DNA from: Candidatus Aldehydirespirator sp.
GTDB lineage: Bacteria > Actinomycetota > Acidimicrobiia > Acidimicrobiales > Aldehydirespiratoraceae
Reading direction: 5' to 3'
NCBI GenBank assembly: GCA_965221215.1
Contig: OZ244872.1
Coordinates: forward strand, 907,601 to 971,600
Length of the DNA stretch: 64,000 bases
Positions within the stretch are counted from its first letter, which is position 1. Each line of letters begins with the position of its first letter. The position numbers were made by a program, and so were the translations under genes. The notes beneath the pieces were generated by a model. The model saw only the letters and a list, made by a program, of their open reading frames with translations. It did not search any database and was not told the DNA's origin. Positions 4,174 through 56,748 of this stretch are shown here, one piece after another.

Positions 4174-4193
4174 TGTCGAATGACTGTCTGCGG

Positions 4194-39173: not shown

Positions 39174-40277
39174 ATGCCGAAACACCCCTCGGTGAATCCG
39201 TTCTCCCCCACGTTCGGTGCCACGCCCCCTCTGCTGGCGGGGCGTGACCGGATTCTCGACCGCTTCTCCGAGGCGTTGGACACCGGCCCCAACCACCCGG
39301 ACTACACGCTGCTGCTCATCGGCGACGGCGGCACCGGCAAGACGGCTCTGCTCAACGTGCTCGAGGAGCAGGCCGCCGACCGCGGCTGGGCAGTGATCAC
39401 CGCGGCGGCGTCGGCAGAGCCCGTGGCCAAGCGGATCACCGCCGAAGCCCTCAGGCATCTCGATCAGGCCGACGGCGACCGCGCCGAGCGCATCGGTGAG
39501 ACCGAGGACCTCGCATCGTCGGAGTCGTGCTCGCCGTGCAGCCTGCTGACTGCTCTGGGCGAGCTCGGTGCGGTCATGGCCGACAGCGGCAAGGGGCTGC
39601 TGGTGACCGTCGACGAACTCCACGCCACCGATCGCGACGACGTCCGCAACATCGAGGCTGCGATCCAGATCGTCACCCGCCGCCGGCAGATGCCGGTGGC
39701 GTTCGTGGCGGCGGCGCTTCCGGTGGTGGAGGACACCCACCTCGATGACTCCCACGCGACGTTCCTCGAGCGCTGCTCCCGCTTTCGCCTGGGCCCGCTC
39801 GACCCCGATGAGACTCGGCGGGCCCTGCGAGAGCCGATCATCAAGTGCGGCAGCGCCATCGACGACGACGCGCTCGACGCGGCCGCCGACGTCACCCGCG
39901 GGCATCCGTACATGGTGCAACTCGTCGGCTTCCACTCCTGGCAGATGCGCGAAGACCCCGGCACGCCGATCAGCGTCACCCACGCCAGCGCCGGGGCCCT
40001 CGAAGCCGAGGCGGCCATGGTGGACCAGATAGCCAGGCCGATCTGGAAGCGGCTCTCTCCGATGGACCGGCGCTTCCTGGTGGCGATGCTGCCCGGCAAC
40101 CCCGACTCGTCGCTGGCCGACGTGGCCACGAGGTTGGGGCGCTCGGTGCAGTACGCCCGCGTCTACCGGCGCCGGCTGGTGGCCGCGGGCGCGATCAGCC
40201 CGTCGGAGAACGGCCGGGTTCGTTTCTTGCACCAGGCGGTGCGGGTGCGGGCCGAGGCGGCCCAGAGGCAGCAGTGA
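39174..40277 (+). CDS. Orphan AAA+ ATPase with C-terminal winged-helix (ORC/Cdc6- or Arch_ATPase-like, STAND-type)
   Basis: 367 aa. The N-terminus is NPFSPTFGATPPLLAGRDRILDRF, Walker A is LLLIGDGGTGKTALL, and Walker B is GLLVTVDELH. The C-terminal LSPMDRRFLVAMLPGNPDSSLADVATRLGRSVQYARVYRRRLVAAGAI is a wHTH-like pattern. Confidence 0.8.
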   Translation: MPKHPSVNPFSPTFGATPPLLAGRDRILDRFSEALDTGPNHPDYTLLLIGDGGTGKTALLNVLEEQAADRGWAVITAAASAEPVAKRITAEALRHLDQADGDRAERIGETEDLASSESCSPCSLLTALGELGAVMADSGKGLLVTVDELHATDRDDVRNIEAAIQIVTRRRQMPVAFVAAALPVVEDTHLDDSHATFLERCSRFRLGPLDPDETRRALREPIIKCGSAIDDDALDAAADVTRGHPYMVQLVGFHSWQMREDPGTPISVTHASAGALEAEAAMVDQIARPIWKRLSPMDRRFLVAMLPGNPDSSLADVATRLGRSVQYARVYRRRLVAAGAISPSENGRVRFLHQAVRVRAEAAQRQQ

Positions 40278-40332
40278 TGGCAGAGACAGCAGTGCTGAAT
40301 GGTCGGAAGTGCTTGATGCATGCAAAGGAGGA

Positions 40333-43300
40333 ATGGTCTTGCAGTTCTTGAGACGGCGTACAAGTGGGTGGCTCTGCGCCCTGCGGCGCGACGGCGGGCC
40401 CGACTGTTTGCAGAGCCCCCCAAACGTTCGCAGGCTGGTGGCGGTGCTGACCGTGGCGCTGGTCGCGTCGCTGCTGGCGGCGGCGCCGGTGCCGTTGTTG
40501 TCGGATGCGGGAGCGCCGCTAGCGCCGGCTGAGGCTGAGGCGCAGCAGGTCACCTCGCCGGCGGTTCTCAACAGGGTCTCGATCATCGAGGGCCAGACAC
40601 GCATCTTTCGGATCTCCAACGTGACGTCGCGCCCCAGCTATTACGTGCATGCCAGCGTCGCGGGCTCCTTCAGCGCCGAGGCGAGCGACGTCACGATCAC
40701 CACGGACAACCTGCGCGGCCAGGCACAGACGATCACCCCCGACACCGACGCGCCGCGCGCCTACCGAGACTCCATCCACAGCACCATCGGCTTCGAGGTC
40801 ACCGCGAACGAGGACAGCGACGGCACCGGCGAAGAGACGTTCGGGGTGCGGCTGTGCACCACCGCTGACTGTCAGAGCGGCACGGTCCTCGGCGAGTGGG
40901 AGGTGGCCATCACCGAGCCCGGTTCGGACACCGTGCTCACCGGCACGGGCGCGACCGTCACCATCCCTGGCGGCAGCGCGCTCAGCGTCATGGAGGACTC
41001 CCGCAACGGCGACGGCCGCGACCGGCGCGCCACGTTCACCATCGCTCTTGACTCGGCGCCGACCGAGGACATCGTGATCGTCGGCCAGGTGGACACCACG
41101 GCTGCCAACGGAGACGGCGTTGCCACATCGATTGCGCGCATCAACGCGGCGCGCTCTCCCGACGAGGAACCGTCGACCACGGCGCGCTATGTGGCTGCCA
41201 GGTTCTCCAACATGGTCACGGTCACCGACCCCGGGAACCCGAATGCCGATCCGCCCGTGCCCCCGTCCCAGACGACTCGGGCACCGACGGCTGACGAGCT
41301 CGCCACACAGGTCAGCGTTGTCGCGTTCGACAACGCGGTCGACACCGCAGGCGGGACGCTGAGCGGCGATCTCACGTTCACCGTCTACAAGGACAACGAT
41401 CGCTTCCGCGGCACCGGCGCCGACGTCGACGGGAACGGCGATCCCATTCTTGGCAACGCCGAGACGTACCCCGGCATTGTCATCCCCAGCGTGCCGATCA
41501 GGGTCACCGATGACGACGAGCCGACGAGGATCCGGCTGCTGCCCACCAGTCCCGCGGACAACACCGCGACGGAGGGCAACACCGACAAGGCCACGGTCCT
41601 GGTGAAGCTCGACCGTGCGCTGGCCGCGGGCGAGGAGGTCACCGCGACGCTGTTCTTCAGCGGCGCCACGTTGGGCACGCACTTCTCGATGGCGGCGGCG
41701 AGCGGGCAGACCGGCGTGACCTACGCCGACTCCGACGACGGAACAAAGGGGCTCGTCACCCTCACCGGTGCGGGCGTTCAGCAGGGTGTGATCGAGGTCA
41801 CCGCGCTCACCGACAGCGACTCTGACAACCAGGCGCTGCAGATCGGGATGCCGCCGACTGACCAACCCTGGCAGAGGAACTATCACCGCTCGAGCCTCGC
41901 CGGCGGGGTCTGCGCCGCGCACGGCTGCCCGAACCGTCCACAGGGCGACCCCGGCCAGCGCTTCCAGTCGGTCACCCTCGCCGAGTCGGCGGCGGGCCTC
42001 ACAATCATCGAGTCCGATGACCCCGACGCCCGCTGGGTGGTCGAGGGCAACGACTACAGCTACAGCGTCCGGTTGAAGGCGCAGCCGTCGATCGATGTGA
42101 CCGTGGCCACATCGATCGCGTCGGGCGGATCGGTGCAGGCCGGGGCGACGCTCACGTTCACCAACAGCGACTGGGCGATGCCGCAGACGGTGACGGTGCG
42201 TCCCACCGACAACGATCTGGACGAGACGCGGCGGACGCTGACGGTGACCCACGCCTTCAGCGGCGACGCCACGTATGCCGCCCTCGCGGATGTCGCGCAC
42301 GAAATCGGCGTGCTCGATGACGACCCGACCACCATCAACATGGCTGGCGCGGGCGTGAACACCGACGGAACCTCTACCAACATGTCGAAGATCATGGTGG
42401 AGGGCGACGCCAGCCGCGTTGACCGCAGCCTCACTATCGAATTGGGCCGCGCTCTGGTTGAGGACGAGTATGTGCGCGTCCCGCTGCGGGTTGAGGCCGT
42501 CGCCAACGGCAACAATCCGGAGCTCCCGGACGATCCGCCCGACCAAGACGAAGATGACGACCCGCTGCCGAGCGACCTCGACCCGCGGCGCACGGTGGTG
42601 GACAGCTTCCGCGGGCCGCGCGCCAGCGCCAATGTGGCCTGGCCGCCGTATCACAACGATGTCGTGATGACTGCCACCGGCACCGGTGTGACCTATGAGC
42701 ACTCCAACCGCCACACCCCCAATCACATCGGTTTCCGCTATATCGAGTTCCGCGGCGCGGGCGCGCAGACCGCGACGATCGTGGTGCACGCCCGCGGCGG
42801 CTTCGACGACGGCGAGAGCTACGACGAGGCGTTCGCGGTCACCTTCCCCAACGACTTCTACGTCTTCGATGAGGACACCGGCCAGCCGGTCAGCAGCACG
42901 CCGGTGCAGGGCAACCTCGGCGGCGGCCTCGAAGCGCAACCGACCGGCTTGGAGGCCTGGTACGGCATCGCCGACGACGACAAGATCGCAGCGGCGCAGA
43001 CCACCGAGGTGGCCAACAGCTGGTCGGCGAAGCCTCCCAGCTTGAGCGACGGCGCCGAGTTCCGGCTGCTGTATGTCACCAGCGGAACCAGAAACGCCAG
43101 CGAGGACGGCTACGCCACCTACAACAATTTTGTGCGTGCCGAGATCACCGGCAACCAGCTCACACAGGGCGGAGTGCCGGACCTGGTGCCGTACGCCACC
43201 AAATTCGCCGCGGTGATCAGCACCAACTCCTCTCAGGGCGTCCGTGGAGGCAACGCCTCCCTCAACGCCAACCTGGAAGACCCGAGCAACGACGCTGCCA

Positions 43301-46300
43301 TCTACTGGGTGGGCGGAACCAAAGTCGCCGACAACACCGCCGACTTCCTCGACGGCACCTGGGACGACGAGGCCAACCCCACCCGCGCCGACGGCACCGC
43401 GGCCACGATCAGCACGGCCGGCTACTGGACCGGCTCGGAGGCCGACGGCCAGCGCGCCGACAGCTGCAGCGGCCTGACGGGATCTGATCGGCATCTGCGA
43501 GCGGGCGCGACCAATGTCGGCTACGGGCTGCTCAACGACAACGGACGCGGGCCGCTGGGCCAAGCCGTGGACGAGACGAGCTGCCAACCCGCGCCCAACA
43601 GCGAGCGGCGGCCGCTGTATGCGCTGTCCACCGAAGCGTTCACCATCTCCGGCGGCGCCGCCATCGAGCCCGCCGCCACCGCCGCGGAGGGCAGCGCCGT
43701 CACCTTCGCCGTCACCATCACCACAGCCGCGCCCTCCGGCGGGATCACCATCCCCTACACCCTCGCCGACGGACGCGGCTACGACAACGACCCCGCCAAC
43801 ATCATCGCCACCAGCACCGACTACACCGACGCCGCCAGTGGCAGCATCGTGATCGCCCAGGGCGACACGACCGGCACCATCACCGTCAACACCACACAAG
43901 ACAGCACATACGAGAGCGACCACTACTTCACCGTCACCCTCGGTACGCCCACAGGCACCGACGCGCCCCAGGTGCAAGCCCTCAAGGGCACCGCCATCGG
44001 CACGATCACCGACGCCGACGACGCGCCCACCATCGAGTTCGCCCCCGCAACAGCTACAGCCGCCGAAGGCGACGGCACCGTGGATGTCACCGTCACCAAG
44101 ACCGGTGCCACGCTGCTGCCCGCGTCGGTGTACTGGACCACCGCCGACGACACCGCGTCACACCCCGACGACTACACCGCCAACGCCGGCTACCTCCAAT
44201 TCGCCCCCGGCGAAACATCCAAGACCATCACCATCGGCATCGTGGCGGACGGCGCCTCCGAGAGCGCCGAGACATTCAAGGTGCAACTCGACGCGCAGCA
44301 GATCGTCGACGCCCAGATCGGCAGTGCATCTGAGGCGACGGTCACGGTGAACGACGACGGGACCAGCGTCTCGGTGCCGAATGTGCAGTTCACCTCGGCG
44401 ACGCAGGCGGTGACCGAGGCCGCTACCACGCTCACCGTCACGGTCGAGGCGGACGCTGCGGCGCCGGCCAACACGGATGTGGCCTTCACGGTGGGCGGCG
44501 ACGCCACAGCCAGCTCGGACTACACCGCTCCCAGCAGCCCGGTCACCATCCTCGCTGGTCAACGCCGCACCACCATCAGCGTCCCGATCCTGCAGGACAG
44601 CGCAAGCGAGAGCCCCGAGACCATCGTGCTGACGCTGATCGACGGCACGGACTACAACCTCGGCTCGCAGACCACCCACACCATCACCATCAACGACGAC
44701 GATTCGTCGCCGATTGTGGAGTTCGCCTCCGCCGCCTCCAAGGGCAGCGAGGGCAACTCCGCCGTGGTCACCGTCGAGGCTTCCCGCCCGGTGGCACAGA
44801 ACACGGCCGTGACCTACACCAGCACCGGGGGGACGGCGACATCCGGCGACGACTACACCGCGCCCGGCGGCACCGTCACCATCCCGAGCGGCCAGAGCAC
44901 CGCTGCCATCACCATTCCCCTGACCGCGGACAGCATGGACGACTCCGGCGAGACCATCGTGCTGACTCTGACCGACGGCACGGACTACGACCTCGGCTCG
45001 CAGACCACCCACACCGTCACCATCTCGGAGGTGGGGTTCATCTTCACGCAGGAGCGCGTCTTCGTGACCGAGGGCGGTTCGGCGGTGCGCTACGGCATCT
45101 CTCTCACCGACGACCCCTCCGGCCTCAATACGGCGCTGCCCGCGTGCGACTACATTCTCGGCACCGACGAGGACAATCCGGTCGACCTGCCGCGCTGCAC
45201 CCCCGACCAGGATCCCGTCTTCGCCCGGGTCATCGTCACCTCGCCGGTCGCGCCCGCTCCGCCGGCGGCCAACCCCAACCCGTTCGAGGTGCTGACCAGC
45301 GGCAACGACCTGCTCCCCACGCTGCGATTCACCCGCCGCAACTTCCACATCCCGCAGTACTTCACCGTCTACCCGCTACAGGACGACGACCCCGACAGCG
45401 AGCAGAACGTGCGCATCACCCACGAGGTCCGCGGCGCTACGGACGATTCCGCCGACTTCCGCGACGACTCGCCCTATGCCACCGGCGGCAGCGTCAATGG
45501 CGTCGACACCGGCCTCGCAGTGCCCGACATGCCCGCCTACGTCTCCGACGACGACGCCGGTCACAAGGAGGGGCTGACGCTGCGACTTCTTGACAAAGAC
45601 CCCGACCTCCCGATCGTCATCCAGGAGGGCAACAAGACCGGCAGGTTCAATCTGGAGTGGCGCGGCCCCACCCTGGGCGGGGATGACGAAGTGGCGGCGC
45701 GTCTGCGTATCACCGGCGGCACGTACGGCAAGGACTACATCGTCGATGCGGAGAGCACCTCTAGTCCAAGGGTCACCTTCGAGCTGCCTATCGACGACGA
45801 ATCCACAATGGATGTGGACGAGTCACACGTCGAGAACGCGGAGATCATCATTCGATGGTTGGCCCCGTTCGGGCGTGTTCCTAGTGCCCAATTCAGAGTC
45901 GTGTCTCTCAGTGACGGCAAGGCGAAGAGCGGTGAACGCCACCTGGGTGTCCATCTTCTGAATGCATGGTCGCCAGACGATTCCGCCAACAAAGACAACG
46001 ACACCCCCGACGGTGTCCGCTTGGAGAACGGTCCCCAGACCAAGCGCATCCATGTCCTCTCCCGTGACCGGATAGTCGTTCGACAGACCGGTACGGAGGA
46101 TGGCTTGAAGTTCGAAGGTTTGGAGACCTCCGGCAGCGATGCCGAGCTCACGACCAACGGCGCGTGGGCGGCCGTTGATGAGGACGGGAGCACGGAACAC
46201 AAGCTCGCATTTGAGATGAGCAGTTGTGTCTTGCCCCGTACTAGCGCCGTGGTGACCGTCAGCACGAGCGACAGCTCCAAGCTGCGCGTCCATGCCAGCG

Positions 46301-49300
46301 ACGACATTGATGGCGTCGTCGACACGCTTACGTGGGGGCCGAACAACAACCCAGAAGGCCGCTGCGGTGAGGTTCACACCGTCAGCTTCATCGCGGATGA
46401 GGACGACGACTCCGACGACGAGGTGGTGGAGGTCTACGTCACCCTAACGAGCGGATATGGGAACGCTTACGTTGACGGCACTGTTGTGCGGACGTTCGAG
46501 GTGCGCATCACCGACGACGACGTGCCCGCAGGCGTGACGGTCTTCCCCACGGCCATTACGGTGCGCGAGGGCGCGAAGAAGGGCGCGAAAGTGGGCGAAG
46601 GCGACCCGCGTGAACGCACCAACCAGGTCGCCTTCAAACTGAACACCGACCCGGGCAGCGGCAACACGGTGCTGATCAACACCCGCGGCGGCGGAATGGC
46701 TGTCCAGAGGGACAAGAGCCAGCACCCCATGGAGTTCACCGGCGGCGAGTCCGGCACCTGGGACACATGGCAGTTTGTTGACATCACCGCGATGGACGAC
46801 AATGACAACGCCGACGACGCAGAAACCGTCAAATGGAGCGTGACAGGCACAGGCGATTACGGGAGCGTGCGCGACCTCAGTGTGGAGGTCACCATCATCG
46901 ACGATGATCCCGCCGTGCGCATCTCCAGGGAAACCATCACGATGGCTGAGCCCCATGTCGAGTCCAGCAGGGCGACAGGGTGGACTTATGAGGTTGTGCT
47001 CAACGTGAAGCCCCACAATGGGATCGTCCATGTTGTGCCCGCCACCGGCGATACCACGGCCGTGAGCTTCGGCAAAAATGACGATGGTCCGATCCTCACC
47101 CACAGGGGCCTGGACTTCACCCCCGAGAACTGGGACGCGCCGCAGACCGTAACCATCTTCCCGTTGGCTGACGGCGACTCCGACGACGAGACCGTCACCA
47201 TCACGCACTCCATCTCCAGCCAGGTCACCCGCACCATCACGAACGAGGATGGAACACCAGCGCAAGTTGGAGCGGCGCGCAACTACCGGCGTGTGTCTGT
47301 GCCGTCTATCGAGGTGAGCGTGCTGGACTCCGACCGCGCCGAGGGGATCGTGGTCGAGCCGGATGCGTTCGTGTCAGAGGGGGGCAGCGGCGGGTTCCCT
47401 GTGCGGCTGGCCGCGCCCGATGCCGTCAGTTTGGTTGTGACGGGCACCCACAGCGGTGTCGTCGTCGACACCGATCCCAGCCTCGACGGAGAGCAGCGGA
47501 CGCTGGTGTTCACTGAGGAGAACTGGTATGAGCCCCAGGCTGTCTTTTTGACGGCCGAGCAGGAGAGCGATAGCAGCGACACCGACGACGGCGTGTTCGA
47601 TTTGACTTTGACCGCCTGGACCGCTGGCGCGCCCGCCGAGGTGGGTCAACCGCCGAATCCTCCGGTGCTTGCCTCGGCCTATGGGACGGCGCCGGTGCGG
47701 GTGCATGTGTACGACGACGAGTTCGCGGGCGGGTCGACGTTCACCGTGACTGGGTCGAGCACGGTTACTGAGGGTGCCGCTCCCGCCATCTTCACCGTGC
47801 AAGCAGACACCGCGTCGTCCGTCGCGGTCGATGTGACGCTGCACATCTCAGAGACCGGCGATTTCGTCGCCGGCGGCGATGAGGGAGACCAGACCGTCGC
47901 CTTCAGCGGCGGCTCCGCCGTCCAGAACCACCAGGTCCCCATCGTCGACGACAATCTGCAGGAGTCTGACGGGACGATCATTGCGGAGCTCAAGCCGGGC
48001 AGCGGCTACCGGATCGGATCGCCGTCGCGGGCGTCTGTCGGCGTCACCGACGACGGCGACACCGGCACCGCGGCGCCGGTACGCATCACGATGGCGGTGG
48101 CCGACGGCGACACGTCCACGGGCGATGTAGTTGAGGGCGCGGGCGACTCCACGGGCTACAAGACGGTCACGTTGACGCTGGATCGGGCCCTGACCAGCGG
48201 CGAGACGGTCACCGTGCCCCTGACGGTCTCGGGCGCAGCGGTGACAACGGATTACACCTTCGGCCTGCACGGCTCCGGGAACACTGGCGTCACGCTGGCC
48301 ACGAGCGGGTCGTATAGCGCACAGAACCCGGCGGTGCAGTTCGCCAGCGGTGCGAGGGTCGCGACGCTGCGGTTCACGCCTGTAAACAACGACGACCGCA
48401 CGCAGCCCGCGATCGATATCCGCATCGGGACGGTCGAGGCGTCGGCCGGCATCACCCACACGACGGCCGGTTCGCCCGTCGGCTTCTTGATCCGCGACGA
48501 CGAGATGGGCGTGATCGAGGTGCCCCGCACCTGGGCGCTCAAGCCCTCGGGGGTGGGCGCCGGCGGGGAGTTCCGGCTGCTGTTCATCACGTCGGAGACG
48601 AGGACGGCCGAGTCGACCGACATCGAGGCATACAACGATTGGGCGCAGGGCGTGGCGGCGCGCAACGGGCATGTCTCCCTGAAGCCCTACGGCGGTTTGC
48701 TCAAGGTGGTCGGCAGCACCGAGTCGGTGAACGCCCGCGTGAACACGGGCATGTGGGATCCGAACACGAGCGGGTTCGTGGACGGCTCCACGGGCAGGTC
48801 CTCTTCTGGCGTTCGGGTCTATTGGCTGGCTCCGGCGTCAGCGGCGAAGGTGGCCGACAGCTACTTCGAGTTCTTCAGCCATCCCTGGGACGGCGGCACC
48901 CATCAGGACACTCGCGACACGCTTGAGTCCGGCATCGCGCGGGACAGCGGCAGCGCGATCTGGACCGGTTCGAACACGAACGGCACGGCTCACTCGGCGC
49001 CGCTCGGAGGCAACGCGCAGAACTGGGTGCGCACGGGCCATGCAATGACCGCGGGCGGTGCTACTACCAACTTGTCTCGAGACAGGGCCACCAAGACCGG
49101 CACCCTGCCCCTCTATGTGATGTCGCCGGTGTTCCGGGTGGAGGGCGCCGAGGCCGAGTTGAGCATCTCTGGCGGGACGGTGGCAGAGGGCGGCACGCTG
49201 ACGGTGACTGTTGATCTCAGCGCGGCGGCGCCGTCGGTGCTGAACATCCCAGTGCAGATGCGCACGAGCGGCAACCCGACTGCGTCGTCAGCCGATTTCT

Positions 49301-52300
49301 CGCTGTCGAACAGCGGCAATGTGGCTATCGCTATGGGCGCCACATCGGGCACCCTGACGTTCACCGCTGAAGACGACATGATCGATGAGGACTCCGAGAC
49401 GCTGACTCTGGAGTTCGGGACGCTGCCCGACGGCGTGATCGCGGGCACGACCTCCAGCGTCGGTGTGACGATCACCGACAACGACACTGCGGGTGTGACC
49501 GTTGCTGAGACGTCGGGCGGTACGACAGTGTCGGAGGACGGCTCGACTACGACTGACACGTACACGGTGGTGTTGGATACTGAGCCGTTGAACAATGTGG
49601 TGGTGACGGTTACTGCGCCGGCGGGGACGCAGGTCAGCACCGACAGCGGCTCGACATGGCACTCGTCGCGAAACCTCACGTTCAACCCGTCGGGGTCGGG
49701 GATCTGGTCGTCGCCGCAGACGGTGACGGTGCGCGGCCAGAACGACGACATCGACAATGCCGGCGATGAGCGCACGATCAGTGTCACGCATGCGATCACC
49801 GATGGTGACGGCAGCAAGTACACCACGTCGACGCCGAGCATCGCGGCGGTGTCGGTGACGGTGACCGACAATGACACGGCCGGAGTGACGGTGGTGCAGT
49901 CGGGAGGGAACACGGTTGTCGCTGAGAACGGCGGCACGGACACGTACACGGTGGCGTTGGACACGCAGCCGCTCTCGAACGTGGTGGTCACGCTCACGAG
50001 CGGCGCGTCGACGGCGGCGTTGTTGAGCGGGGGAGGGCAGACGAATCAGGGCACGGTGACGCTGACCTTCACGCCGACCAGTTGGGGCGCGCAGACGGTG
50101 ACCGTGCGGGGCGTGAACGACGCCATCGACAACGCCAACGACCGCCGAACGGTGACGATCACCCAGTCGGTCACGACGGGCGACACGAACGGCAAGTACA
50201 CCACCAGCACCAACGTGGCGAACGTGAGCGTGAGGGTCAACGACGACGGCGACACGGCGGCGGTGACTGTCACTCCGAGCGGCGGCACAACGACCGTGAC
50301 CGAGGACGGCAGCGACACCGACGATTACACGGTAGTGCTGGACACGCAGCCGCTGAGCAGTGTGACGATCACGGCCACGGCGCCGGCGGGGGCGCAGGTC
50401 AGCGACGACGGCGGCACGTCGTGGGGGTCGTCGGTGGATCTGACGTTCACGTCGGGCACGTCGGGCAACTGGGGCACGGCCCAGACGGTGACCGTGCGGG
50501 GCACGCAGGACATCATTGACAATCCGGGCGACCAGCGCAGCATCACCATCACCCACGCGATCACTTCTGGCAACGGCGACGGGAGCCGCTACACGCCGTC
50601 GACGCCGTCGAAGCCGAGCGTGGCGGTGAGGGTGAACGACGACGACCCGAAGCCGACACAGATCACCTTGACCACGAACCGCAACACTGCGGTGTCGGAG
50701 GGCACGGCGTCGACCATGGTGACGGTTACCGCGACAGTGCAGGGCCCGACGCGCTTCGGCGCCGACAAGACGGTGGCGGTGAGCGTCGACGCCAGCGCCG
50801 ACGTTAATGGCGGCGCCAACTATGTGGACATGACCGCGGTGGCTGATTTCAACATCACGATCCCGGCGGGCGATCGGACTGCGACAGGGATGTTCACCAT
50901 CACGCCGGACAACGACATGGTGGACGAGTCCGACAACAGCATTGCGGTGACCGGCAGCGTGTCGGGGGACTCGGCGGTGACGGTGAACCCGGCGACGCCG
51001 ATCATGCTGAGGGACAACGACAATGCGCCGACAGTGGTGAATCTGAGTGTGACGCCGAACTCGATCAGCGAGAACGGCGGCGCTCGGAGCATCTCGGTGA
51101 CCGCGACAGTGCAGGGCTCGACCCGGTTCGGGACAGACAAGACGGTGGCGGTGTCGGTGGCGGGCCACAACGCGGCGGGCGCGGTGGGGTTCACCCAGGT
51201 GTCGACGTTCAGTGTGGTGATCTCCGCGGAGCAGCAGACGTCGTCGGGCAGCGACAGTTTCACGCTGACTCCCGACAACAACATCTGGAACGAACAGGAC
51301 GGCTCGGCGGTGCTCAGCGGCACGTTGTCGGGGGTGACGGTCAACGGTGCGAGCGTGACGTTGACCAACGACGATGCCGAGCCGCCGGGGGTGACCCTGT
51401 CGGTGAGCGACGAGATGATCGGCGAGGCCGACGGGGCTCAGACGATAACGGTGACCGCGACGGTGCAGGGCGCGACGCGCTATGGCACGGCGCGCACGGT
51501 GAACGTGAGCGTGGCAGCTTCAGGCAACGCGGATGCGGTGGACTTCACCGCTTCGACGCCGATGGCGATCATGCTGGCGCCGGGTGACCGCACCGCAACG
51601 ACGACGTTCACGCTGACGCCGACCGCCGACAGTGTGGACGAGTTCGACGAGACGATCACGGTGTCGGGCACGGGAGCGGACATCGCGGCGTTCACCGATG
51701 CGTCGATCACGCTGGCCGACGACGACGCGACCACCCTCACGATGACTGCGCCCGCGGGTGCGGTGGCTGAGAGCGGCGGCACCACCGACGTGACGCTGAC
51801 GCTGAGCCGGGCGCTGGTGGACGGCGAGTCGGTGACGGTGCCGCTGGATGTGGTGGGAGCGGCGGCAAGATCCGATTACACGCTGGGGTTGCAGCCGTCG
51901 TCGCAGACTGGTGTGGCGCTGTCTGTATCGGGCTCTGACAGCGTCCAGGCGCCCAAGGTGACTCTGACCACCGGCGCTGAGACCGCGGTGATGCGGTTCA
52001 CCGCGGTTGATGACAGCACCCGCACCCAGCCGTATGTGCTGGTGCGCTACGGCACCGGGGCCCGGGCGCCGTCGGGCGCGGGCGTGGATTTCGCGGCGCC
52101 GGCGGATGGGCCGGTGGGCTGGGTGATCACCGACAACGAGACCGGCGACATTGTGGTGCCGCAGTCTTGGGCGCTGTCGCCCAGCGGTGTGCAGAATCAG
52201 GGCGAGCCGAGGTTCCGGCTGGTGTTCGTGTCGTCGGCGAAGCGCGACGCCTCCTCCACAGACATCGCCGAATATGACGCGTTCATCCGCGGCCTGCTCG

Positions 52301-55300
52301 CGCAGGGGCACACTGCGGTTGTTCCCTATGCGGGGTTCTTCACCGTTGTGGGGTCCACCTCGGGCGTGCATCTGAGGGACCACGCGAACGTGGCGGGATC
52401 TGCGACGATGCCGTTCTATTGGCTGGGCGAGACCGGAGACACCACCAAGCGGGTCGCGGTGGACAACAGCCAGTTCCGCGGCGAGTGGATCGACACCGAG
52501 ACGCCGTCTTCGCAGAGCGTGCCCCGCAACGAGTCCGGCGCCGTGGTGTCGGTCGACAGCAACGGCTATTTCACCGGATCCACCGCCGCGGGGGCGCGGT
52601 CGGCCAATCCGCTGGGCTCGACGAACGTCACGGTCGGCTATCTCAACGACAGCGGCAGCGGCCGGGCGCCGCTGGGCAGCGGCCAGACGGTCGCCAACAC
52701 CGCCACGCGCAGCTTCTACGGGCTGTCGCCGGTGTTCGTGAGGGCCAGCGACCCTGTCGTCTCGGTGACCACATCGCAGACGTCGGTGGCTGAGGGCACC
52801 GCTTTGAGCTTCACCGTGAGCGCCGACCCCGCGCCGCCCAACGCGATAACAGTGCGGTTGTGGGTCTCGCAGAACTCCGGGCGCGACATGGTGCCCGTCG
52901 TCGGGGAGCAGATGGTGGCGTTCGCGGCGGGCGACACCTCCAAGACGCTCACGGTGGCCACTGCCGGCGACAACAGCGACGAGGCCGACGCCGAGGTGTC
53001 GGCGAGAGTGTTGAACAACGCCGGCTACACGGTGAGCGCCACCGCCGCCGAGGCGTCGGTGACAGTCACCGACAACGACGCCATGACCGTGTCGGTGTCT
53101 GGCGGCGGCGGAAGCGTGAGCGAGGGATCGAGCCGCGACTACACCGTCGATCCGGGCCGCAGCCTGTTGTCGGGTGAGACGGTGACGGTGAACTTCGCTC
53201 CGGCGGGCAGCGCCACCCGGGGCTCGGACTACACGATCACCTGCCACGGCACAGGCGTGACCTGCGCGGGCCTGGGCGGCACCACACCGAGCTTGACCAT
53301 CACTGGCGGCAGCGGCGTGCGCAACGCCACCATCCGCATCAACGCCCAGAACGACATGGTGCATCCCGAGTCCGGCGAGACCGCCGGGATCAGCCTGCGC
53401 TCAGGGCATGCCAGCACAGGCTCGGGCGGCACGTTCTCGGTGAGCGGCTCACCGTCGACGTTCACCATTGCGAGCACCGCCCCCGCCGCGATCACCGCGT
53501 CGTTCGATTTGGCCGCCTACGGGGTGGGGGAGGCGGCGGGTGCCCGCTCGGTGCCGGTGACGCTCTCGCGGGTTGCGCCCTCGGGTGGGCTGGTTGTGTC
53601 CTACACCACCGGCGGAGATGCGGTCTCGGGCGACGACTACAGCGGCGCGGGCGGCACGGTGACCGTCGCGGCGGGCCAGACCTCAGCGAGCATCTCTTTC
53701 ACGGTCATCGACGATGTATTGGCTGAGGGCGCTGAGACCTTGACGTTCACCCTCACCGACGGCGCGAACTACGACCTGGGGTCGCCGAGCCAGACCACGA
53801 TCACGATCAACGACAACGACATCGCCCCCTCCAGCATCACTTTGGGCGTTGACGACAACAGTGTGAACGAGGCCGACGGCGCGACGACGGTCACCGTGAC
53901 TGCCACCGTCAGCGGTTCGACACGCTTCGCGGAGTCCAAGACGGTGGCGGTGACGGTGGCGGGGTCGGGTGCCGCCAACACGGTGGGGTTCACTGCGAAC
54001 CCGTCGATGTTCAACATCACCATCGCCGCTGGCGCGCAGACCGGGACCGGCATGTTCACGCTGACCCCCACCGACAACAGCGTCGACGAGAACAACGAGA
54101 CGGTCACAGTGTCGGGAGCGCTGTCGGGGGTCACGGTGAACTCTGCGACGATCACCCTCATAGACGACGACACGACCGTGGCGACGCCGGTCACGGTCAC
54201 CTTGTCGGCGCCGGCGGGCGACGTCACCGAGGGCGCTAGCGGCGCCGCCGGACGCAAGGACGTCACGATCACCCTGGGTCGAGCGCTGGCCGGCACTGAG
54301 ACAATCACGGTGCCGCTGGAGGTGTTCGGCGCCACCGTCGCCACCGACTACAGCTTCGGGCTGCAGCCCGCCACCCAGGCCGGGGTGGCGCTTCTCACTT
54401 CGAACCCGTACAGCGCTCAGCATCCGGCGGTGCGCCTGTCGGCGGGAGCGTCGAGCGCGGTGCTGCGGTTCATGCCGGTGAACAACAGCGTGCGCACCCA
54501 GCCTCTTGTGACGATCAACAGGAACTCCAGTCATCAGACCACCGGTGGGGGCGGCGCGACGTTGGGGGCGGTGTCGGGCGGCCCGTTCAAGTTCTTGGTC
54601 ATCGACGACGAGACCGGCGATATCACCGTGCCGAGCAGTTGGGCGCTGGCCCCGTCGGGGCTGTCGGCGGGCGACGACTTCCGGCTGCTGTTCCGCTCCT
54701 CGACGACCCGCGACGCCACATCGTCGAACATCGCGGACTACGACTTCTTTGTGCGCGACGTGGTGGCGTTGGGCGGCCATAGCGCGGCGCTGCCCTATGC
54801 GGGGTTCTTCAAGGCGTTCGCGTCGACCCGCAGCGCCTCGGGCTCGACGGGCACCACCGCCCGGGTGCACAACAACATGGCCTCGGGCCACACCGGTCAC
54901 TTCAGCGGCGCGAACGACGTGTGGGCCGACGGATCCACCGTCCCCAACGCAGGCAACACGACGGGGACGCCGATCTATTGGCTAAACGGCGCCAAGCTCG
55001 CCAACAACTACGCCGACCTGTGCGACCAAGCCTTGAAGTCGGGCAGCGGGGTCACCACCGGCTGGGATCTCGACGACCCCCGCAGCGAGGACGGAAACCG
55101 CAACATTGCGGCGGGAACGAACCCCGGTCAGACCCATCAGGCATGGACCGGCACCGGCAACGCCTGCGAGGCCTACAACCACCCCCTCGGCGGCGACAAC
55201 AACGGCGACGTCTCGCGTGCCGCCAGCCACGACACGACCTGGGCGTTCATGCACCAGGCCCAAAACGCTCGATCACAGCAGCGGCCCCTCTATGGCATGT

Positions 55301-56748
55301 CGCCAGTGTTCAAGATCGCCGGCGCATCCCCGCCGCCACCGCCTCCGCCGCCGACGCCGGTCGCGTCGTTCGCGGCGGCCTCGTCCACCGTGGGGGAGGC
55401 GTCGGGCAGTCGCAACCTCCGGTTGGATCTCAACCCGGCGCCCGCCGCGGCCATCACCGTCAACTACACGCTGTCGGGCTCGGCGGTCCGCGGCAGCGAT
55501 TACACCATCGCAGGAGTCTCGTCCAACAACGGCACCGTCTCTGTCAATGCCAACCAGAGCATCGTGAACATCCCCATAGTGATCACAGACGACAACGCCG
55601 TAGAGAGTTCTGAGGCGATTGTTGTGACCCTCAACACCGGCTCGGGATACACGCTCACCGGCGCTGCCCATCGTGTGCACACCCGCACCATCACCGACAA
55701 CGACACCACCCCGACCACCCCGGTCGCGTCGTTCGCGGCGGGCGCATCGACCGTCAGTGAGGCGTCGGGCACCACGAACATCCGGCTGAACCTCACCCCG
55801 GCACCCACAGTCGGTATCACCGTGAGATACACCCTGTCTGGCTCGGCGGTTCGCGGCAGCGACTACACCATCTCAGGCGTCTCCTCCAACAACGCCACTG
55901 TTGCGGTCTCGGCCAATCAGGGGTTCGTGAACATCGGTGTGCGCATCGTCGATGACAGCACCCGGGAATCCGCCGAGACCATCCGCCTGACGCTCAACAC
56001 CGGCTCGGGCTACACGCTCACGGGTGCCACGAACCGGGTCCATACCCGCACGATCACCGACAACGACACCACCAGCCCACCGCCGCCTCCTCCACCGCCG
56101 CCTCCTCCACCGCCTCCGCCGCCGCCGCCTCCACCACCACCGCCTCCTCCCGCGCAGGATGAGTCGGAGACGGTTTTGGAGCCCGAGACCTTCGACGACA
56201 TCGACGAGGTCCACGAGGTGCACGCCTCCGATGTGGCCCAGGCCAACGAGATGGGCTGGCTCACCGGCGTCGGCTGCGACACCGGGGCGTTCTGCGGCCG
56301 CGAGGCCATGAACCGCTGGCAGCTCGCGGTCATGATCGTGCGAGCCCTGGACGGCGCCAATCCCGACGCCGATCCCGCCGCGCCCCGCTTCCGCGACGTG
56401 TCGCCTGCGGCCTGGTGGTCGGTCCATGTGCGGCGCCTCGCCCAGCTCGGCATCACACTGGGCTGCGACGCCAGACGGTTCTGCCCCGACCGGCCGGTGA
56501 CGCGCGCCGAGGCCGCGTCGCTGCTGGCACGCGCCTACGGGCTCACCACCGACGCGGAGACGAGCTTCACCGACCTCGACGAAGGCGACGTCCACGCCGA
56601 TGCGGTCGCCGCGCTCTACCGCTCCGGCATCACCAACGGCTGCGACGACGGACGGTTCTGCCCCTATCAGCCCCTTACCCGCCAGCAAGCCGCCAGCCTG
56701 CTGATACGGGCCCAGAACGCCGCCCAAGAAACCGACAACGACTCCTGA
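40333..56748 (+). CDS. Giant (about 5470 aa) secreted, SLH-anchored, Calx-beta-rich surface protein
   Basis: A single uninterrupted ORF (track 40309..56748). The signal-like N-terminus is NVRRLVAVLTVALVASLLAAAPVPLL...APAEAEA. It has dozens of beta-sandwich repeats, many with the Calx-beta signature (GTA..gDDY...GT.tF..G...k.i.i....D...E..E.F.v.L). It also has 4 lectin-like modules, a Pro25 spacer and 3 SLH repeats. The start is ambiguous among ATG 40309, ATG 40333 and TTG 40339. Confidence 0.9.
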   Translation: MVLQFLRRRTSGWLCALRRDGGPDCLQSPPNVRRLVAVLTVALVASLLAAAPVPLLSDAGAPLAPAEAEAQQVTSPAVLNRVSIIEGQTRIFRISNVTSRPSYYVHASVAGSFSAEASDVTITTDNLRGQAQTITPDTDAPRAYRDSIHSTIGFEVTANEDSDGTGEETFGVRLCTTADCQSGTVLGEWEVAITEPGSDTVLTGTGATVTIPGGSALSVMEDSRNGDGRDRRATFTIALDSAPTEDIVIVGQVDTTAANGDGVATSIARINAARSPDEEPSTTARYVAARFSNMVTVTDPGNPNADPPVPPSQTTRAPTADELATQVSVVAFDNAVDTAGGTLSGDLTFTVYKDNDRFRGTGADVDGNGDPILGNAETYPGIVIPSVPIRVTDDDEPTRIRLLPTSPADNTATEGNTDKATVLVKLDRALAAGEEVTATLFFSGATLGTHFSMAAASGQTGVTYADSDDGTKGLVTLTGAGVQQGVIEVTALTDSDSDNQALQIGMPPTDQPWQRNYHRSSLAGGVCAAHGCPNRPQGDPGQRFQSVTLAESAAGLTIIESDDPDARWVVEGNDYSYSVRLKAQPSIDVTVATSIASGGSVQAGATLTFTNSDWAMPQTVTVRPTDNDLDETRRTLTVTHAFSGDATYAALADVAHEIGVLDDDPTTINMAGAGVNTDGTSTNMSKIMVEGDASRVDRSLTIELGRALVEDEYVRVPLRVEAVANGNNPELPDDPPDQDEDDDPLPSDLDPRRTVVDSFRGPRASANVAWPPYHNDVVMTATGTGVTYEHSNRHTPNHIGFRYIEFRGAGAQTATIVVHARGGFDDGESYDEAFAVTFPNDFYVFDEDTGQPVSSTPVQGNLGGGLEAQPTGLEAWYGIADDDKIAAAQTTEVANSWSAKPPSLSDGAEFRLLYVTSGTRNASEDGYATYNNFVRAEITGNQLTQGGVPDLVPYATKFAAVISTNSSQGVRGGNASLNANLEDPSNDAAIYWVGGTKVADNTADFLDGTWDDEANPTRADGTAATISTAGYWTGSEADGQRADSCSGLTGSDRHLRAGATNVGYGLLNDNGRGPLGQAVDETSCQPAPNSERRPLYALSTEAFTISGGAAIEPAATAAEGSAVTFAVTITTAAPSGGITIPYTLADGRGYDNDPANIIATSTDYTDAASGSIVIAQGDTTGTITVNTTQDSTYESDHYFTVTLGTPTGTDAPQVQALKGTAIGTITDADDAPTIEFAPATATAAEGDGTVDVTVTKTGATLLPASVYWTTADDTASHPDDYTANAGYLQFAPGETSKTITIGIVADGASESAETFKVQLDAQQIVDAQIGSASEATVTVNDDGTSVSVPNVQFTSATQAVTEAATTLTVTVEADAAAPANTDVAFTVGGDATASSDYTAPSSPVTILAGQRRTTISVPILQDSASESPETIVLTLIDGTDYNLGSQTTHTITINDDDSSPIVEFASAASKGSEGNSAVVTVEASRPVAQNTAVTYTSTGGTATSGDDYTAPGGTVTIPSGQSTAAITIPLTADSMDDSGETIVLTLTDGTDYDLGSQTTHTVTISEVGFIFTQERVFVTEGGSAVRYGISLTDDPSGLNTALPACDYILGTDEDNPVDLPRCTPDQDPVFARVIVTSPVAPAPPAANPNPFEVLTSGNDLLPTLRFTRRNFHIPQYFTVYPLQDDDPDSEQNVRITHEVRGATDDSADFRDDSPYATGGSVNGVDTGLAVPDMPAYVSDDDAGHKEGLTLRLLDKDPDLPIVIQEGNKTGRFNLEWRGPTLGGDDEVAARLRITGGTYGKDYIVDAESTSSPRVTFELPIDDESTMDVDESHVENAEIIIRWLAPFGRVPSAQFRVVSLSDGKAKSGERHLGVHLLNAWSPDDSANKDNDTPDGVRLENGPQTKRIHVLSRDRIVVRQTGTEDGLKFEGLETSGSDAELTTNGAWAAVDEDGSTEHKLAFEMSSCVLPRTSAVVTVSTSDSSKLRVHASDDIDGVVDTLTWGPNNNPEGRCGEVHTVSFIADEDDDSDDEVVEVYVTLTSGYGNAYVDGTVVRTFEVRITDDDVPAGVTVFPTAITVREGAKKGAKVGEGDPRERTNQVAFKLNTDPGSGNTVLINTRGGGMAVQRDKSQHPMEFTGGESGTWDTWQFVDITAMDDNDNADDAETVKWSVTGTGDYGSVRDLSVEVTIIDDDPAVRISRETITMAEPHVESSRATGWTYEVVLNVKPHNGIVHVVPATGDTTAVSFGKNDDGPILTHRGLDFTPENWDAPQTVTIFPLADGDSDDETVTITHSISSQVTRTITNEDGTPAQVGAARNYRRVSVPSIEVSVLDSDRAEGIVVEPDAFVSEGGSGGFPVRLAAPDAVSLVVTGTHSGVVVDTDPSLDGEQRTLVFTEENWYEPQAVFLTAEQESDSSDTDDGVFDLTLTAWTAGAPAEVGQPPNPPVLASAYGTAPVRVHVYDDEFAGGSTFTVTGSSTVTEGAAPAIFTVQADTASSVAVDVTLHISETGDFVAGGDEGDQTVAFSGGSAVQNHQVPIVDDNLQESDGTIIAELKPGSGYRIGSPSRASVGVTDDGDTGTAAPVRITMAVADGDTSTGDVVEGAGDSTGYKTVTLTLDRALTSGETVTVPLTVSGAAVTTDYTFGLHGSGNTGVTLATSGSYSAQNPAVQFASGARVATLRFTPVNNDDRTQPAIDIRIGTVEASAGITHTTAGSPVGFLIRDDEMGVIEVPRTWALKPSGVGAGGEFRLLFITSETRTAESTDIEAYNDWAQGVAARNGHVSLKPYGGLLKVVGSTESVNARVNTGMWDPNTSGFVDGSTGRSSSGVRVYWLAPASAAKVADSYFEFFSHPWDGGTHQDTRDTLESGIARDSGSAIWTGSNTNGTAHSAPLGGNAQNWVRTGHAMTAGGATTNLSRDRATKTGTLPLYVMSPVFRVEGAEAELSISGGTVAEGGTLTVTVDLSAAAPSVLNIPVQMRTSGNPTASSADFSLSNSGNVAIAMGATSGTLTFTAEDDMIDEDSETLTLEFGTLPDGVIAGTTSSVGVTITDNDTAGVTVAETSGGTTVSEDGSTTTDTYTVVLDTEPLNNVVVTVTAPAGTQVSTDSGSTWHSSRNLTFNPSGSGIWSSPQTVTVRGQNDDIDNAGDERTISVTHAITDGDGSKYTTSTPSIAAVSVTVTDNDTAGVTVVQSGGNTVVAENGGTDTYTVALDTQPLSNVVVTLTSGASTAALLSGGGQTNQGTVTLTFTPTSWGAQTVTVRGVNDAIDNANDRRTVTITQSVTTGDTNGKYTTSTNVANVSVRVNDDGDTAAVTVTPSGGTTTVTEDGSDTDDYTVVLDTQPLSSVTITATAPAGAQVSDDGGTSWGSSVDLTFTSGTSGNWGTAQTVTVRGTQDIIDNPGDQRSITITHAITSGNGDGSRYTPSTPSKPSVAVRVNDDDPKPTQITLTTNRNTAVSEGTASTMVTVTATVQGPTRFGADKTVAVSVDASADVNGGANYVDMTAVADFNITIPAGDRTATGMFTITPDNDMVDESDNSIAVTGSVSGDSAVTVNPATPIMLRDNDNAPTVVNLSVTPNSISENGGARSISVTATVQGSTRFGTDKTVAVSVAGHNAAGAVGFTQVSTFSVVISAEQQTSSGSDSFTLTPDNNIWNEQDGSAVLSGTLSGVTVNGASVTLTNDDAEPPGVTLSVSDEMIGEADGAQTITVTATVQGATRYGTARTVNVSVAASGNADAVDFTASTPMAIMLAPGDRTATTTFTLTPTADSVDEFDETITVSGTGADIAAFTDASITLADDDATTLTMTAPAGAVAESGGTTDVTLTLSRALVDGESVTVPLDVVGAAARSDYTLGLQPSSQTGVALSVSGSDSVQAPKVTLTTGAETAVMRFTAVDDSTRTQPYVLVRYGTGARAPSGAGVDFAAPADGPVGWVITDNETGDIVVPQSWALSPSGVQNQGEPRFRLVFVSSAKRDASSTDIAEYDAFIRGLLAQGHTAVVPYAGFFTVVGSTSGVHLRDHANVAGSATMPFYWLGETGDTTKRVAVDNSQFRGEWIDTETPSSQSVPRNESGAVVSVDSNGYFTGSTAAGARSANPLGSTNVTVGYLNDSGSGRAPLGSGQTVANTATRSFYGLSPVFVRASDPVVSVTTSQTSVAEGTALSFTVSADPAPPNAITVRLWVSQNSGRDMVPVVGEQMVAFAAGDTSKTLTVATAGDNSDEADAEVSARVLNNAGYTVSATAAEASVTVTDNDAMTVSVSGGGGSVSEGSSRDYTVDPGRSLLSGETVTVNFAPAGSATRGSDYTITCHGTGVTCAGLGGTTPSLTITGGSGVRNATIRINAQNDMVHPESGETAGISLRSGHASTGSGGTFSVSGSPSTFTIASTAPAAITASFDLAAYGVGEAAGARSVPVTLSRVAPSGGLVVSYTTGGDAVSGDDYSGAGGTVTVAAGQTSASISFTVIDDVLAEGAETLTFTLTDGANYDLGSPSQTTITINDNDIAPSSITLGVDDNSVNEADGATTVTVTATVSGSTRFAESKTVAVTVAGSGAANTVGFTANPSMFNITIAAGAQTGTGMFTLTPTDNSVDENNETVTVSGALSGVTVNSATITLIDDDTTVATPVTVTLSAPAGDVTEGASGAAGRKDVTITLGRALAGTETITVPLEVFGATVATDYSFGLQPATQAGVALLTSNPYSAQHPAVRLSAGASSAVLRFMPVNNSVRTQPLVTINRNSSHQTTGGGGATLGAVSGGPFKFLVIDDETGDITVPSSWALAPSGLSAGDDFRLLFRSSTTRDATSSNIADYDFFVRDVVALGGHSAALPYAGFFKAFASTRSASGSTGTTARVHNNMASGHTGHFSGANDVWADGSTVPNAGNTTGTPIYWLNGAKLANNYADLCDQALKSGSGVTTGWDLDDPRSEDGNRNIAAGTNPGQTHQAWTGTGNACEAYNHPLGGDNNGDVSRAASHDTTWAFMHQAQNARSQQRPLYGMSPVFKIAGASPPPPPPPPTPVASFAAASSTVGEASGSRNLRLDLNPAPAAAITVNYTLSGSAVRGSDYTIAGVSSNNGTVSVNANQSIVNIPIVITDDNAVESSEAIVVTLNTGSGYTLTGAAHRVHTRTITDNDTTPTTPVASFAAGASTVSEASGTTNIRLNLTPAPTVGITVRYTLSGSAVRGSDYTISGVSSNNATVAVSANQGFVNIGVRIVDDSTRESAETIRLTLNTGSGYTLTGATNRVHTRTITDNDTTSPPPPPPPPPPPPPPPPPPPPPPPPPAQDESETVLEPETFDDIDEVHEVHASDVAQANEMGWLTGVGCDTGAFCGREAMNRWQLAVMIVRALDGANPDADPAAPRFRDVSPAAWWSVHVRRLAQLGITLGCDARRFCPDRPVTRAEAASLLARAYGLTTDAETSFTDLDEGDVHADAVAALYRSGITNGCDDGRFCPYQPLTRQQAASLLIRAQNAAQETDNDS
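43009..43653 (+). other. Lectin-like module copy 1 (about 200 aa, unassigned family)
   Basis: VANSWSAKPPSLSDGAEFRLLYVTSGTRNASEDGYATYNNFV...AIYWVGGTKVADNTADFLDGTWD...YWTGSEADG...RRPLYALSTEAF. Confidence 0.6.
44020..45030 (+). other. Block of three canonical Calx-beta domains (example region)
   Basis: Examples: EGDGTVDVTVTKTG...WTTADDTASHPDDYTANAGYLQFAPGETSKTITIGIVADGASESAETFKVQL and EGNSAVVTVEASR...TSTGGTATSGDDYTAPGGTVTIPSGQSTAAITIPLTADSMDDSGETIVLTL. Confidence 0.75.
48520..49146 (+). other. Lectin-like module copy 2
   Basis: VPRTWALKPSGVGAGGEFRLLFITSETRTAESTDIEAYNDWA...RVYWLAPASAAKVADSYFEFF...IWTGSNTNG...LPLYVMSPVFRV. Confidence 0.6.
49478..50645 (+). repeat. Three tandem ~125-130-aa domain repeats inside the giant gene
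   Basis: The units start DNDTAGVTVAETSGG..., DNDTAGVTVVQSGGN... and DDGDTAAVTVTPSGG... Each contains DTYTV.LDT.PL..V...., W...QTVTVRG..D.IDN and a (V/R)V.D(N/D)D boundary. Confidence 0.8.
52156..52746 (+). other. Lectin-like module copy 3
   Basis: VPQSWALSPSGVQNQGEPRFRLVFVSSAKRDASSTDIAEYDAFI...PFYWLGETGD...YFTGSTAAG...RSFYGLSPVFVR. Confidence 0.6.
54628..55323 (+). other. Lectin-like module copy 4
   Basis: VPSSWALAPSGLSAGDDFRLLFRSSTTRDATSSNIADYDFFV...PIYWLNGAKLANNYADLCD...AWTGTGNAC...RPLYGMSPVFKI. Confidence 0.6.
55351..56073 (+). repeat. Two tandem ~120-aa domain repeats (360 + 363 bp) just upstream of the Pro25 spacer
   Basis: One unit is PVASFAAASSTVGEASGSRNLRLDLNPAPAAAITVNYTLSGSAVRGSDYTIAGVSSNNGTVSV...HTRTITDNDTT. 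The other is PVASFAAGASTVSEASGTTNIRLNLTPAPTVGITVRYTLSGSAVRGSDYTISGVSSNNATVAV...HTRTITDNDTT. The DNA copies are clearly alignable by eye with many substitutions. Confidence 0.85.
56077..56151 (+). repeat. 25 consecutive proline codons (CCN) forming a Pro25 spacer
   Basis: Counted from cca at 56077 to ccc at 56149-56151. Mixed cca/ccg/cct/ccc codons are used. A shorter Pro run (SPPPPPPPPTP) lies at about 55327-55356. Confidence 0.9.
56191..56718 (+). other. Three S-layer homology (SLH) repeats, a cell-wall anchoring module
   Basis: FDDIDEVHEVHASDVAQANEMGWLTGVGCDTGAFCGREAMNRWQLAVMIVRAL; FRDVSPAAWWSVHVRRLAQLGITLGCDARRFCPDRPVTRAEAASLLARA; FTDLDEGDVHADAVAALYRSGITNGCDDGRFCPYQPLTRQQAASLLIRA. All three fit the SLH pattern F.DV...W....V..L...GI..G....F.P...vTRaeaA.ll.R. 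Confidence 0.8.

Follow-up and report, generated by a model that had tools for sequence, protein, structure and literature searches.

Endostatin, a domain of the NC1 region of collagens XV and XVIII that forms its own branch within the C-type-lectin-like superfamily, is a signalling and adhesion domain of animal basement membranes, and reportedly possesses two conserved disulfides, a zinc site formed by His1, His3, His11 and Asp76, and a basic patch of Arg residues for heparin. The LenA-F proteins of Leptospira, which we take to be the Pfam family DUF1554 (PF07588), are the closest functional precedent, by analogy, for the proteins described here. They are surface proteins that bind laminin, fibronectin and factor H, and their likeness to endostatin is a PHYRE prediction with a precision of 25-60% (PMC2063517). 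In the present work we analysed a stretch of 64,000 nucleotides (nt) from Candidatus Aldehydirespirator sp. (contig OZ244872.1, positions 907,601 to 971,600; hereafter the window, in whose numbering all coordinates are given). A single giant open reading frame (ORF) of this window carries four copies of a module of about 200 amino acids (aa), for which structural modelling supports the C-type-lectin-like fold, and specifically its endostatin version. The module is a member of a very large family of extracellular domains for which neither Pfam nor NCBIfam has a model.

The original prediction, made from the letters of the DNA, had proposed four divergent copies of this module. Exactly four are found, all in the one ORF, and the coordinates given at that stage agree to within ~12 nt with the envelopes of a profile hidden Markov model (HMM):

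42997-43659, forward strand: predicted endostatin-fold module, copy 1, aa 897-1117 (HMM envelope 897-1114); the most divergent copy, with one Cys pair
48508-49149, forward strand: predicted endostatin-fold module, copy 2, aa 2734-2947; no Cys
52144-52752, forward strand: predicted endostatin-fold module, copy 3, aa 3946-4148; no Cys
54616-55326, forward strand: predicted endostatin-fold module, copy 4, aa 4770-5006; an insertion of ~25 aa and one Cys pair; matched by HMMER in two stretches

When each segment was compared by BLASTP with the whole protein, the other three copies were the only matches (E 1e-12 to 1e-25, 29-33% identity), the next-best ones having E > 0.3. All four copies match the profile of the unnamed family (~190 positions, including W9, P13, F22-R23-L24, Y42, Y92-W93, W111, T133-G134 and S185), with bit scores of 102, 145, 108 and 69+39 for copies 1 to 4. 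The four motif blocks by which the module had been recognised are all visible in the alignment of the four copies (A1), in which the invariant columns include W15, P19, F28-R29-L30, Y48, Y109-W110, T151-G152 and Y214/S217/F221. The module had also been described as cysteine-free, which is correct for copies 2 and 3 and incorrect for copies 1 and 4; the two Cys of copy 1 are at module positions 157 and 196, and the pair of copy 4 is placed differently.

The closest relatives of the four copies in other giant proteins share 85% identity with module 3, 52% with module 2, 43% with module 1 and 42% with module 4, the value for module 3 being that of the equivalent copy in three giant proteins (P0055, P0122 and P0143). 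Each copy is therefore nearer to modules of other giants than to its own paralogues (30-33%), which indicates that the four-copy layout is old, and the separate conservation of each copy position fits differing specificities better than recent redundancy. In a metagenome-assembled genome (MAG) of the Acidimicrobiia, one locus (L069) runs collinear with the giant protein over aa 3394-5261, with ~64% identity between the two. A recent tandem duplication was considered as the origin of the copies and rejected, given 30-33% identity between paralogues versus up to 85% between orthologous copies elsewhere.

Two copies, module 3 and the most divergent one, module 1, were modelled with AlphaFold2 (AF2) without templates, giving a mean predicted local distance difference test score (pLDDT) of 86.6 and a predicted template-modelling score (pTM) of 0.88 for module 3, and a pLDDT of 87.3 and a pTM of 0.87 for module 1. 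In a Foldseek search of the PDB, the sole significant matches of both models were endostatins, namely 1koe, 1dy0, 1dy1 and 1bnl from mouse and human collagen XVIII and 1dy2 from collagen XV (probability 1.00, E 4.8e-6 to 3.4e-4, template-modelling (TM) score 0.53-0.70, 184-218 aligned columns). Canonical C-type lectins came next, only at E > 0.7 (0.8-10), with TM scores of 0.15-0.38 and a root-mean-square deviation (RMSD) mostly above 14 Å. The endostatin/C-type-lectin fold suggested by the original prediction is thus borne out by the models, as the top five PDB matches are all endostatin, and the consistency of the fold across copies, named beforehand as a check, is seen in the same endostatins being retrieved by the two most different copies (~32% identity). 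As to the proposed parallel in block order with endostatin, hhalign against human endostatin picks the same register, FRAFLSS / PIVNL..LLF / VWHGS, but at P 0.05-0.09, which is not significant. No match was obtained in the viral structures of BFVD, and no solved DUF1554 structure was present among the Foldseek PDB matches. A reading of the module as an enzyme, FGE-like or nitrilase-like, was also considered and rejected, such Foldseek matches having E > 1 and TM scores of ~0.15.

At the level of sequence the family stands by itself. Pfam and NCBIfam gave nothing for the four copies, and scanning 40 diverse family members one by one against Pfam at E ≤ 10 also gave nothing, the only matches being chance ones at E > 0.07. 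Profile HMMs run against all PDB sequences retrieved only chance matches (cytochrome c and nitrogenase delta chain, E 0.26-1.6). DUF1554, the other family invoked at the outset, was not matched by any of the four copies or the 40 family members at E ≤ 10. Membership of Pfam Endostatin (PF06482) or DUF1554 (PF07588) is not supported by these sequence comparisons, and "DUF1554-like", as applied to the module, stays a fold-level analogy.

The functional sites of the related folds were also sought. No His occurs among the 15 N-terminal residues of any of the four modules, and the EPN/QPD and WND motifs by which lectins bind Ca2+ and sugars are present in 0 of the 4 copies and in less than 2% of family copies. 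The net charge of the four modules is -3 to -12, and the family mean is -10, as against +5 for endostatin, which has an isoelectric point (pI) of 9.3. Because the module is acidic and endostatin basic, binding of heparin or heparan sulfate through an Arg patch is unlikely.

The module resembles the endostatin of the collagen XVIII/XV NC1 region in fold, in size (~180-200 aa) and in the order of strands and helices, and both are extracellular and carried by a long fibrous protein. They differ in that identity is only 11-16%, in that endostatin is a single C-terminal domain following a collagen helix whereas the module is internal and repeated up to 14 times, and in that the N-terminal His/Asp zinc site and the paired disulfides are absent from the module. 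In the giant protein no run of five or more G-x-y triplets, the signature sought for a collagen triple helix, was found. The canonical C-type lectins (PF00059; snaclecs, langerin, MBP and mincle) are members of endostatin's structural superfamily, but the module has neither a Pfam match to them nor their EPN/QPD or WND motifs. The Len proteins share with the module family a location on the bacterial surface, a predicted likeness to endostatin and multiplication by paralogy and intragenic duplication; in contrast to the giant fibre, they are small lipoproteins of a spirochaete that is a pathogen of mammals.

An exhaustive profile search for the module retrieved 6,693 representatives of 50%-identity clusters at E ≤ 1e-3 and 2,278 at E ≤ 1e-30; the second count is the safer, as the weaker tail may match flanking columns of the query alignment. 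A word-indexed protein search, which returned 16 relatives, all without Pfam domains, and then 6 homologues, misses most of the family. In the best 150 proteins there are 566 matched stretches (492 full-length), and the number of modules per protein reaches 14, in a protein of 6,554 aa. The modules often follow each other directly in tandem, or are separated by gaps of ~100-140 aa or ~180-250 aa, and a sample of ten members yielded fn3, Cadherin and Cadherin-like as partner domains. In homologues such as P0003, P0004, P0005 and P0007, a signal peptide is directly followed by the module, and the existence of small proteins composed of these two parts shows the module to be an extracellular domain that is autonomous.

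Across the 492 full-length copies, 44 positions are at least 80% conserved, and the four copies of the window retain 28-35 of them. The 44 positions include a conserved acidic motif, K-V-A-D-D-Y-x-D-F-Y-D-G-x-W-D...E-x-G; in the window copies the core residues are intact and this motif is only partly complete. Two Cys are found in ~35% of family copies, and ~29% bear a recurrent pair at HMM positions 70 and 135, which, following the hhalign register, would lie on the counterparts of two adjacent endostatin strands, FRAFLSS and VWHGS, in keeping with the fold.

To describe the distribution of the module, genomes were scanned with an alignment (A3), yielding at least 292 confirmed loci; the taxonomy given here is that of the best 79, all of them in MAGs. 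These loci belong to Dehalococcoidia and other Chloroflexota, Alpha- and Gammaproteobacteria (including Ca. Poriferihabitaceae), Acidimicrobiia including Ca. Poriferisodalis and Ca. Poriferisocius, Acidobacteriota including Ca. Multivorans and Ca. Versatilivorator, Rhodothermales, a Prochlorococcaceae cyanobacterium and a Nitrosopumilus archaeon. The module is thus spread over at least seven phyla plus Nitrosopumilus archaea. Several taxon names, formed with Poriferi- or Spongii-, and several isolate labels suggest symbionts of marine sponges, and MAGs of this type are deposited through the genome notes of sponge sequencing projects. Specificity of the family for sponges is, in our view, a strong lead rather than a result, as the ranking of the loci favours relatives of the query.

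The archaeal occurrence comprises at least four separate module loci (L024, L028, L031 and L043) on the 2.5-Mb chromosome of a Nitrosopumilus sp. MAG (OZ245003.1). Their G+C content is 46-53%, compared with 60-72% in the bacterial loci examined, so that they appear native to the archaeal genome rather than the result of bacterial contamination. The archaeal modules are ~50-55% identical to the bacterial query modules, and at this level of sequence similarity they seem best explained by horizontal transfer between the domains. In two archaeal loci the module is preceded by a signal peptide or by repeats that to the eye resemble LVIVD, and in one locus PKD-like repeats come after it. A Dehalococcoidia MAG (OZ243973.1, locus L078) contains stretches of ~550-600 aa with 45% identity to aa 4473-5008 and aa 1017-1574 of the giant protein, and from this locus whole blocks of Calx-beta domains and module may be shared between phyla. 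A scan of IMG/VR gave a single weak locus (L080) in a 112-kb contig listed as viral (IMGVR_UViG_3300033112_000310), where an ORF of 666 aa with 64% G+C has one module at 35% identity.

In the giant protein the module is not an isolated element. The original prediction had described a two-domain cassette, in which a Calx-like domain precedes the module in at least copies 2 to 4, and the regions concerned are the following:

42406-43008, forward strand: region 5' of module 1; no Pfam match; similar to the pre-domains of the other three copies only in its initial ~30-40 aa
48106-48519, forward strand: putative divergent Calx-beta-like pre-domain of cassette 2, aa 2600-2737
51742-52155, forward strand: putative divergent Calx-beta-like pre-domain of cassette 3, aa 3812-3949
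54202-54627, forward strand: putative divergent Calx-beta-like pre-domain of cassette 4, aa 4632-4773

The pre-domains of copies 2-4, of ~140 aa, share 45-51% identity (E 1e-29 to 1e-36), in agreement with the proposed cassette, and by sequence comparison a cassette of pre-domain plus module is present at these three copies. The region before copy 1 resembles the three pre-domains over 21-39 aa only (E 0.002-0.008). Support for the Calx-like label is mixed: Pfam gives no Calx-beta match for pre-domains 2-4 at E ≤ 1, and hhalign aligns the pre-domains with ten bona fide Calx-beta repeats of the same giant protein (probability 88%, E 3.1e-6, 81 columns, with an insertion of ~25 aa). It is therefore reasonable to regard the pre-domains of copies 2-4 as divergent Calx-beta-like domains.

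The remaining features of the giant protein are those of a secreted surface protein, and the only Pfam domains it contains are Calx-beta (E 6e-50 and 4e-21, in at least 7 stretches) and SLH:

40309-56748, forward strand: giant ORF, 5,479 aa counted from the first GTG
40426-40542, forward strand: predicted Sec signal peptide, read by eye in the translation (RR, a hydrophobic run LVAVLTVALVASLLAAA, then AEAEA)
43660-45033, forward strand: four canonical Calx-beta repeats, aa 1118-1575, by Pfam (best stretch aa 1235-1350)
55357-56064, forward strand: two Calx-beta repeats, aa 5017-5252, with a run of 8 Pro on the 5' side and of 25 Pro on the 3' side
56206-56748, forward strand: C-terminal SLH repeats (Pfam SLH E 2.3e-15, 2 stretches over threshold)

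The GTG at 40426 is likely the true start, giving MRRLVAVLTVALVASLLAAAP...AEAEA, and the segment that begins there is probably a Sec signal peptide, judged from its translation. With SLH repeats and a signal-like N-terminus the protein has the parts of an SLH-anchored surface protein, the signal peptide being read by eye. SLH anchors are unusual in Acidimicrobiia and imply a matching secondary cell-wall polymer. Each SLH repeat bears a G-C-D...R-F-C-P motif. The protein is strongly acidic, with a net charge of -379 and a pI of 4.25. The proline runs (8 Pro at 55330-55353 and 25 Pro at 56077-56151) bracket the last two Calx-beta repeats, and, placed ahead of the SLH anchor, are probably rigid spacers across the wall.

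Long parts of the giant protein are left without assignment. The segment 45034-47733 (~aa 1576-2475, ~900 residues), in which several acidic D-rich segments occur, has no Pfam match and no likeness to the other repeats of the protein. Two more series of internal repeats can be recognised by eye in the translation of 49489-51741 (~aa 3061-3811), one of 3 units of ~110 aa starting with TAGVTV and the other of 4 units of ~105 aa ending in TRFG.DKTVAVSV, and the best stretches reported by Pfam fall outside them.

Concerning the genomic context, a gene for a STAND NTPase of the AAA_16/nSTAND1 type (39174-40277, forward strand, 367 aa) ends 31 nt upstream of the giant ORF, with no functional link to it being evident. 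Aminotransferases and an S9 peptidase are encoded downstream, ordinary metabolic genes elsewhere in the window, and the genes around the giant ORF look unrelated to its product. An ORF of 1,530 aa on the reverse strand (1153-5745) has ResIII helicase as its sole domain (E 5e-7) and may encode a large helicase or a defence-type protein. The G+C content of the window is 64-73%, and with such a high value the many long opposite-strand ORFs are the usual artefacts. Among relatives that bear an organism name, the nearest to the E1 dehydrogenase encoded in the window is a protein of the Acidimicrobiia, at 62% identity, in keeping with a probable place of the organism in that class.

On this basis we consider it probable that the modules are the ligand-binding heads of an SLH-anchored, multivalent adhesin fibre, directed toward ligands of the host matrix, the host cell surface or glycans. 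The giant protein would be secreted and held to the cell wall by its C-terminal SLH repeats, and between signal peptide and anchor would extend ~5,200 residues in which Calx-beta and Calx-beta-like domains predominate and long segments lack a Pfam assignment. Four autonomous globular modules of ~200 aa, three of the four in a fixed cassette, would be spaced along this stalk, each of them a putative ligand-binding head held away from the cell, so that the fibre as a whole would act as a multivalent adhesin. We infer a role in host association in which the modules would bind through a putative conserved acidic surface, possibly with Ca2+, instead of the basic heparin patch of endostatin, and in which the targets would be molecules of the host matrix or of the host cell surface. 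Calx-beta domains are Ca2+-binding, and since they flank the modules, and the setting would be rich in Ca2+ if it is marine, as the related MAGs suggest, an involvement of Ca2+ is plausible.

Several results speak against modules that are endostatin-like heads for host ligands. The fold evidence from AF2 was built on shallow alignments (18-20 sequences), and TM scores of 0.5-0.7 with 11-16% identity to endostatin do not prove common ancestry. No sequence method ties the family to Endostatin, DUF1554 or Lectin_C. The zinc site, the two disulfides and the basic patch of endostatin are all missing from the four modules, and with these functional features absent, the function of endostatin is not simply transferable to the module. 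Module 3 has V, Q, R and E at the family positions D101, D105, D108 and E120, and the link to sponges comes from the names of organisms among the best 79 loci, which were ranked by similarity to sponge-type queries.

The likeness to endostatin could then be a coincidence of modelling or a convergence, the module being an unrelated alpha/beta domain, possibly an enzyme, as every sequence-level comparison is non-significant, the modelling alignments are shallow and the RMSD is 3.7-5.8 Å. We regard this as very improbable, given that two separately modelled copies, with ~32% identity between them, fetch the same five endostatins near full-length, all other matches having E ≥ 0.7, that hhalign independently gives the same register with an agreeing order of secondary structures, and that the family Cys pair at 70/135 would fall on strands matching adjacent strands of endostatin; for an enzyme, no significant nitrilase, FGE or other match was retrieved, and no conserved catalytic-type Cys/His/Ser triad is present. 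A passive structural element, giving rigidity or spacing and having no specific ligand, would account for the alternation of the modules with the beta-sandwich domains of the stalk and for the degenerate state of the putative acidic site in module 3. However, in many small proteins the module stands alone after the signal peptide, where a spacer would be pointless, ~44 positions are at least 80% conserved over the 492 copies, including Asp and Glu of the exposed type, and the position of each copy is kept across orthologous giants, all of which makes a pure spacer improbable.

The nature of the ligand leaves more room. The modules might bind microbial or self ligands, serving the aggregation of symbionts, a biofilm, an S-layer-like lattice or attachment to particles or polysaccharides. 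SLH anchoring and extreme acidity are reminiscent of many biofilm adhesins bridged by Ca2+ and of RTX-type ones, environmental adhesins too are typically multi-copy giants with Calx-beta, cadherin and fn3 domains, and no host ligand is known. On the other hand, the family is found in unrelated lineages named as sponge symbionts, including archaea and a cyanobacterium, which suggests a shared external target in the host more than self-recognition particular to each lineage, and the Len proteins of Leptospira, the only bacterial proteins so far called endostatin-like, bind host matrix (PMC2063517). We thus consider self ligands unlikely, and favour modules that bind molecules of the host. A bolder version of the host-directed adhesin, which we put forward only tentatively, is that the module is an endostatin-fold "matrix mimic", a symbiosis factor spread horizontally among sponge-dwelling bacteria of many phyla and Thaumarchaeota, and engaging the matrix or the receptors of the host. 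If this were true, the module, displayed often in many copies on giant fibres, would fix symbionts in the mesohyl or label them "not food" to the phagocytic cells of the host.

In Acidimicrobiia living in symbiosis with sponges, an enrichment of Calx-beta, fn3 and cadherin proteins is reported (PMC11706023), and the sponge aggregation factor itself is described as rich in Calx-beta domains (PMC5400394). The surface proteins of eukaryotic-like type known from sponge symbionts (Calx-beta, fn3, cadherin, ankyrin and leucine-rich repeat) share with the module protein the same context of giant secreted proteins. Surveys of such proteins count Pfam domains, which leaves a module without a Pfam model uncounted, and in the papers that our literature searches retrieved, PMC11706023 among them, we found no mention of it.

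What is new here is a very large and so far unannotated sequence family, whereas its fold and its functional class, that of surface adhesin modules, are known. Pfam-based surveys of "eukaryotic-like" proteins in sponge microbiomes are blind to this module, and a new family model would give an annotation to thousands of regions of giant surface proteins now labelled "hypothetical". The family crosses the boundary between bacteria and archaea at roughly 50-55% identity. Even if the link with sponges were an artefact of sampling, the module would constitute a new branch of the endostatin / C-type-lectin-like fold, well defined and shared by bacteria and archaea, and its predicted endostatin fold may offer a testable handle on how sponges and their symbionts recognise and hold each other.

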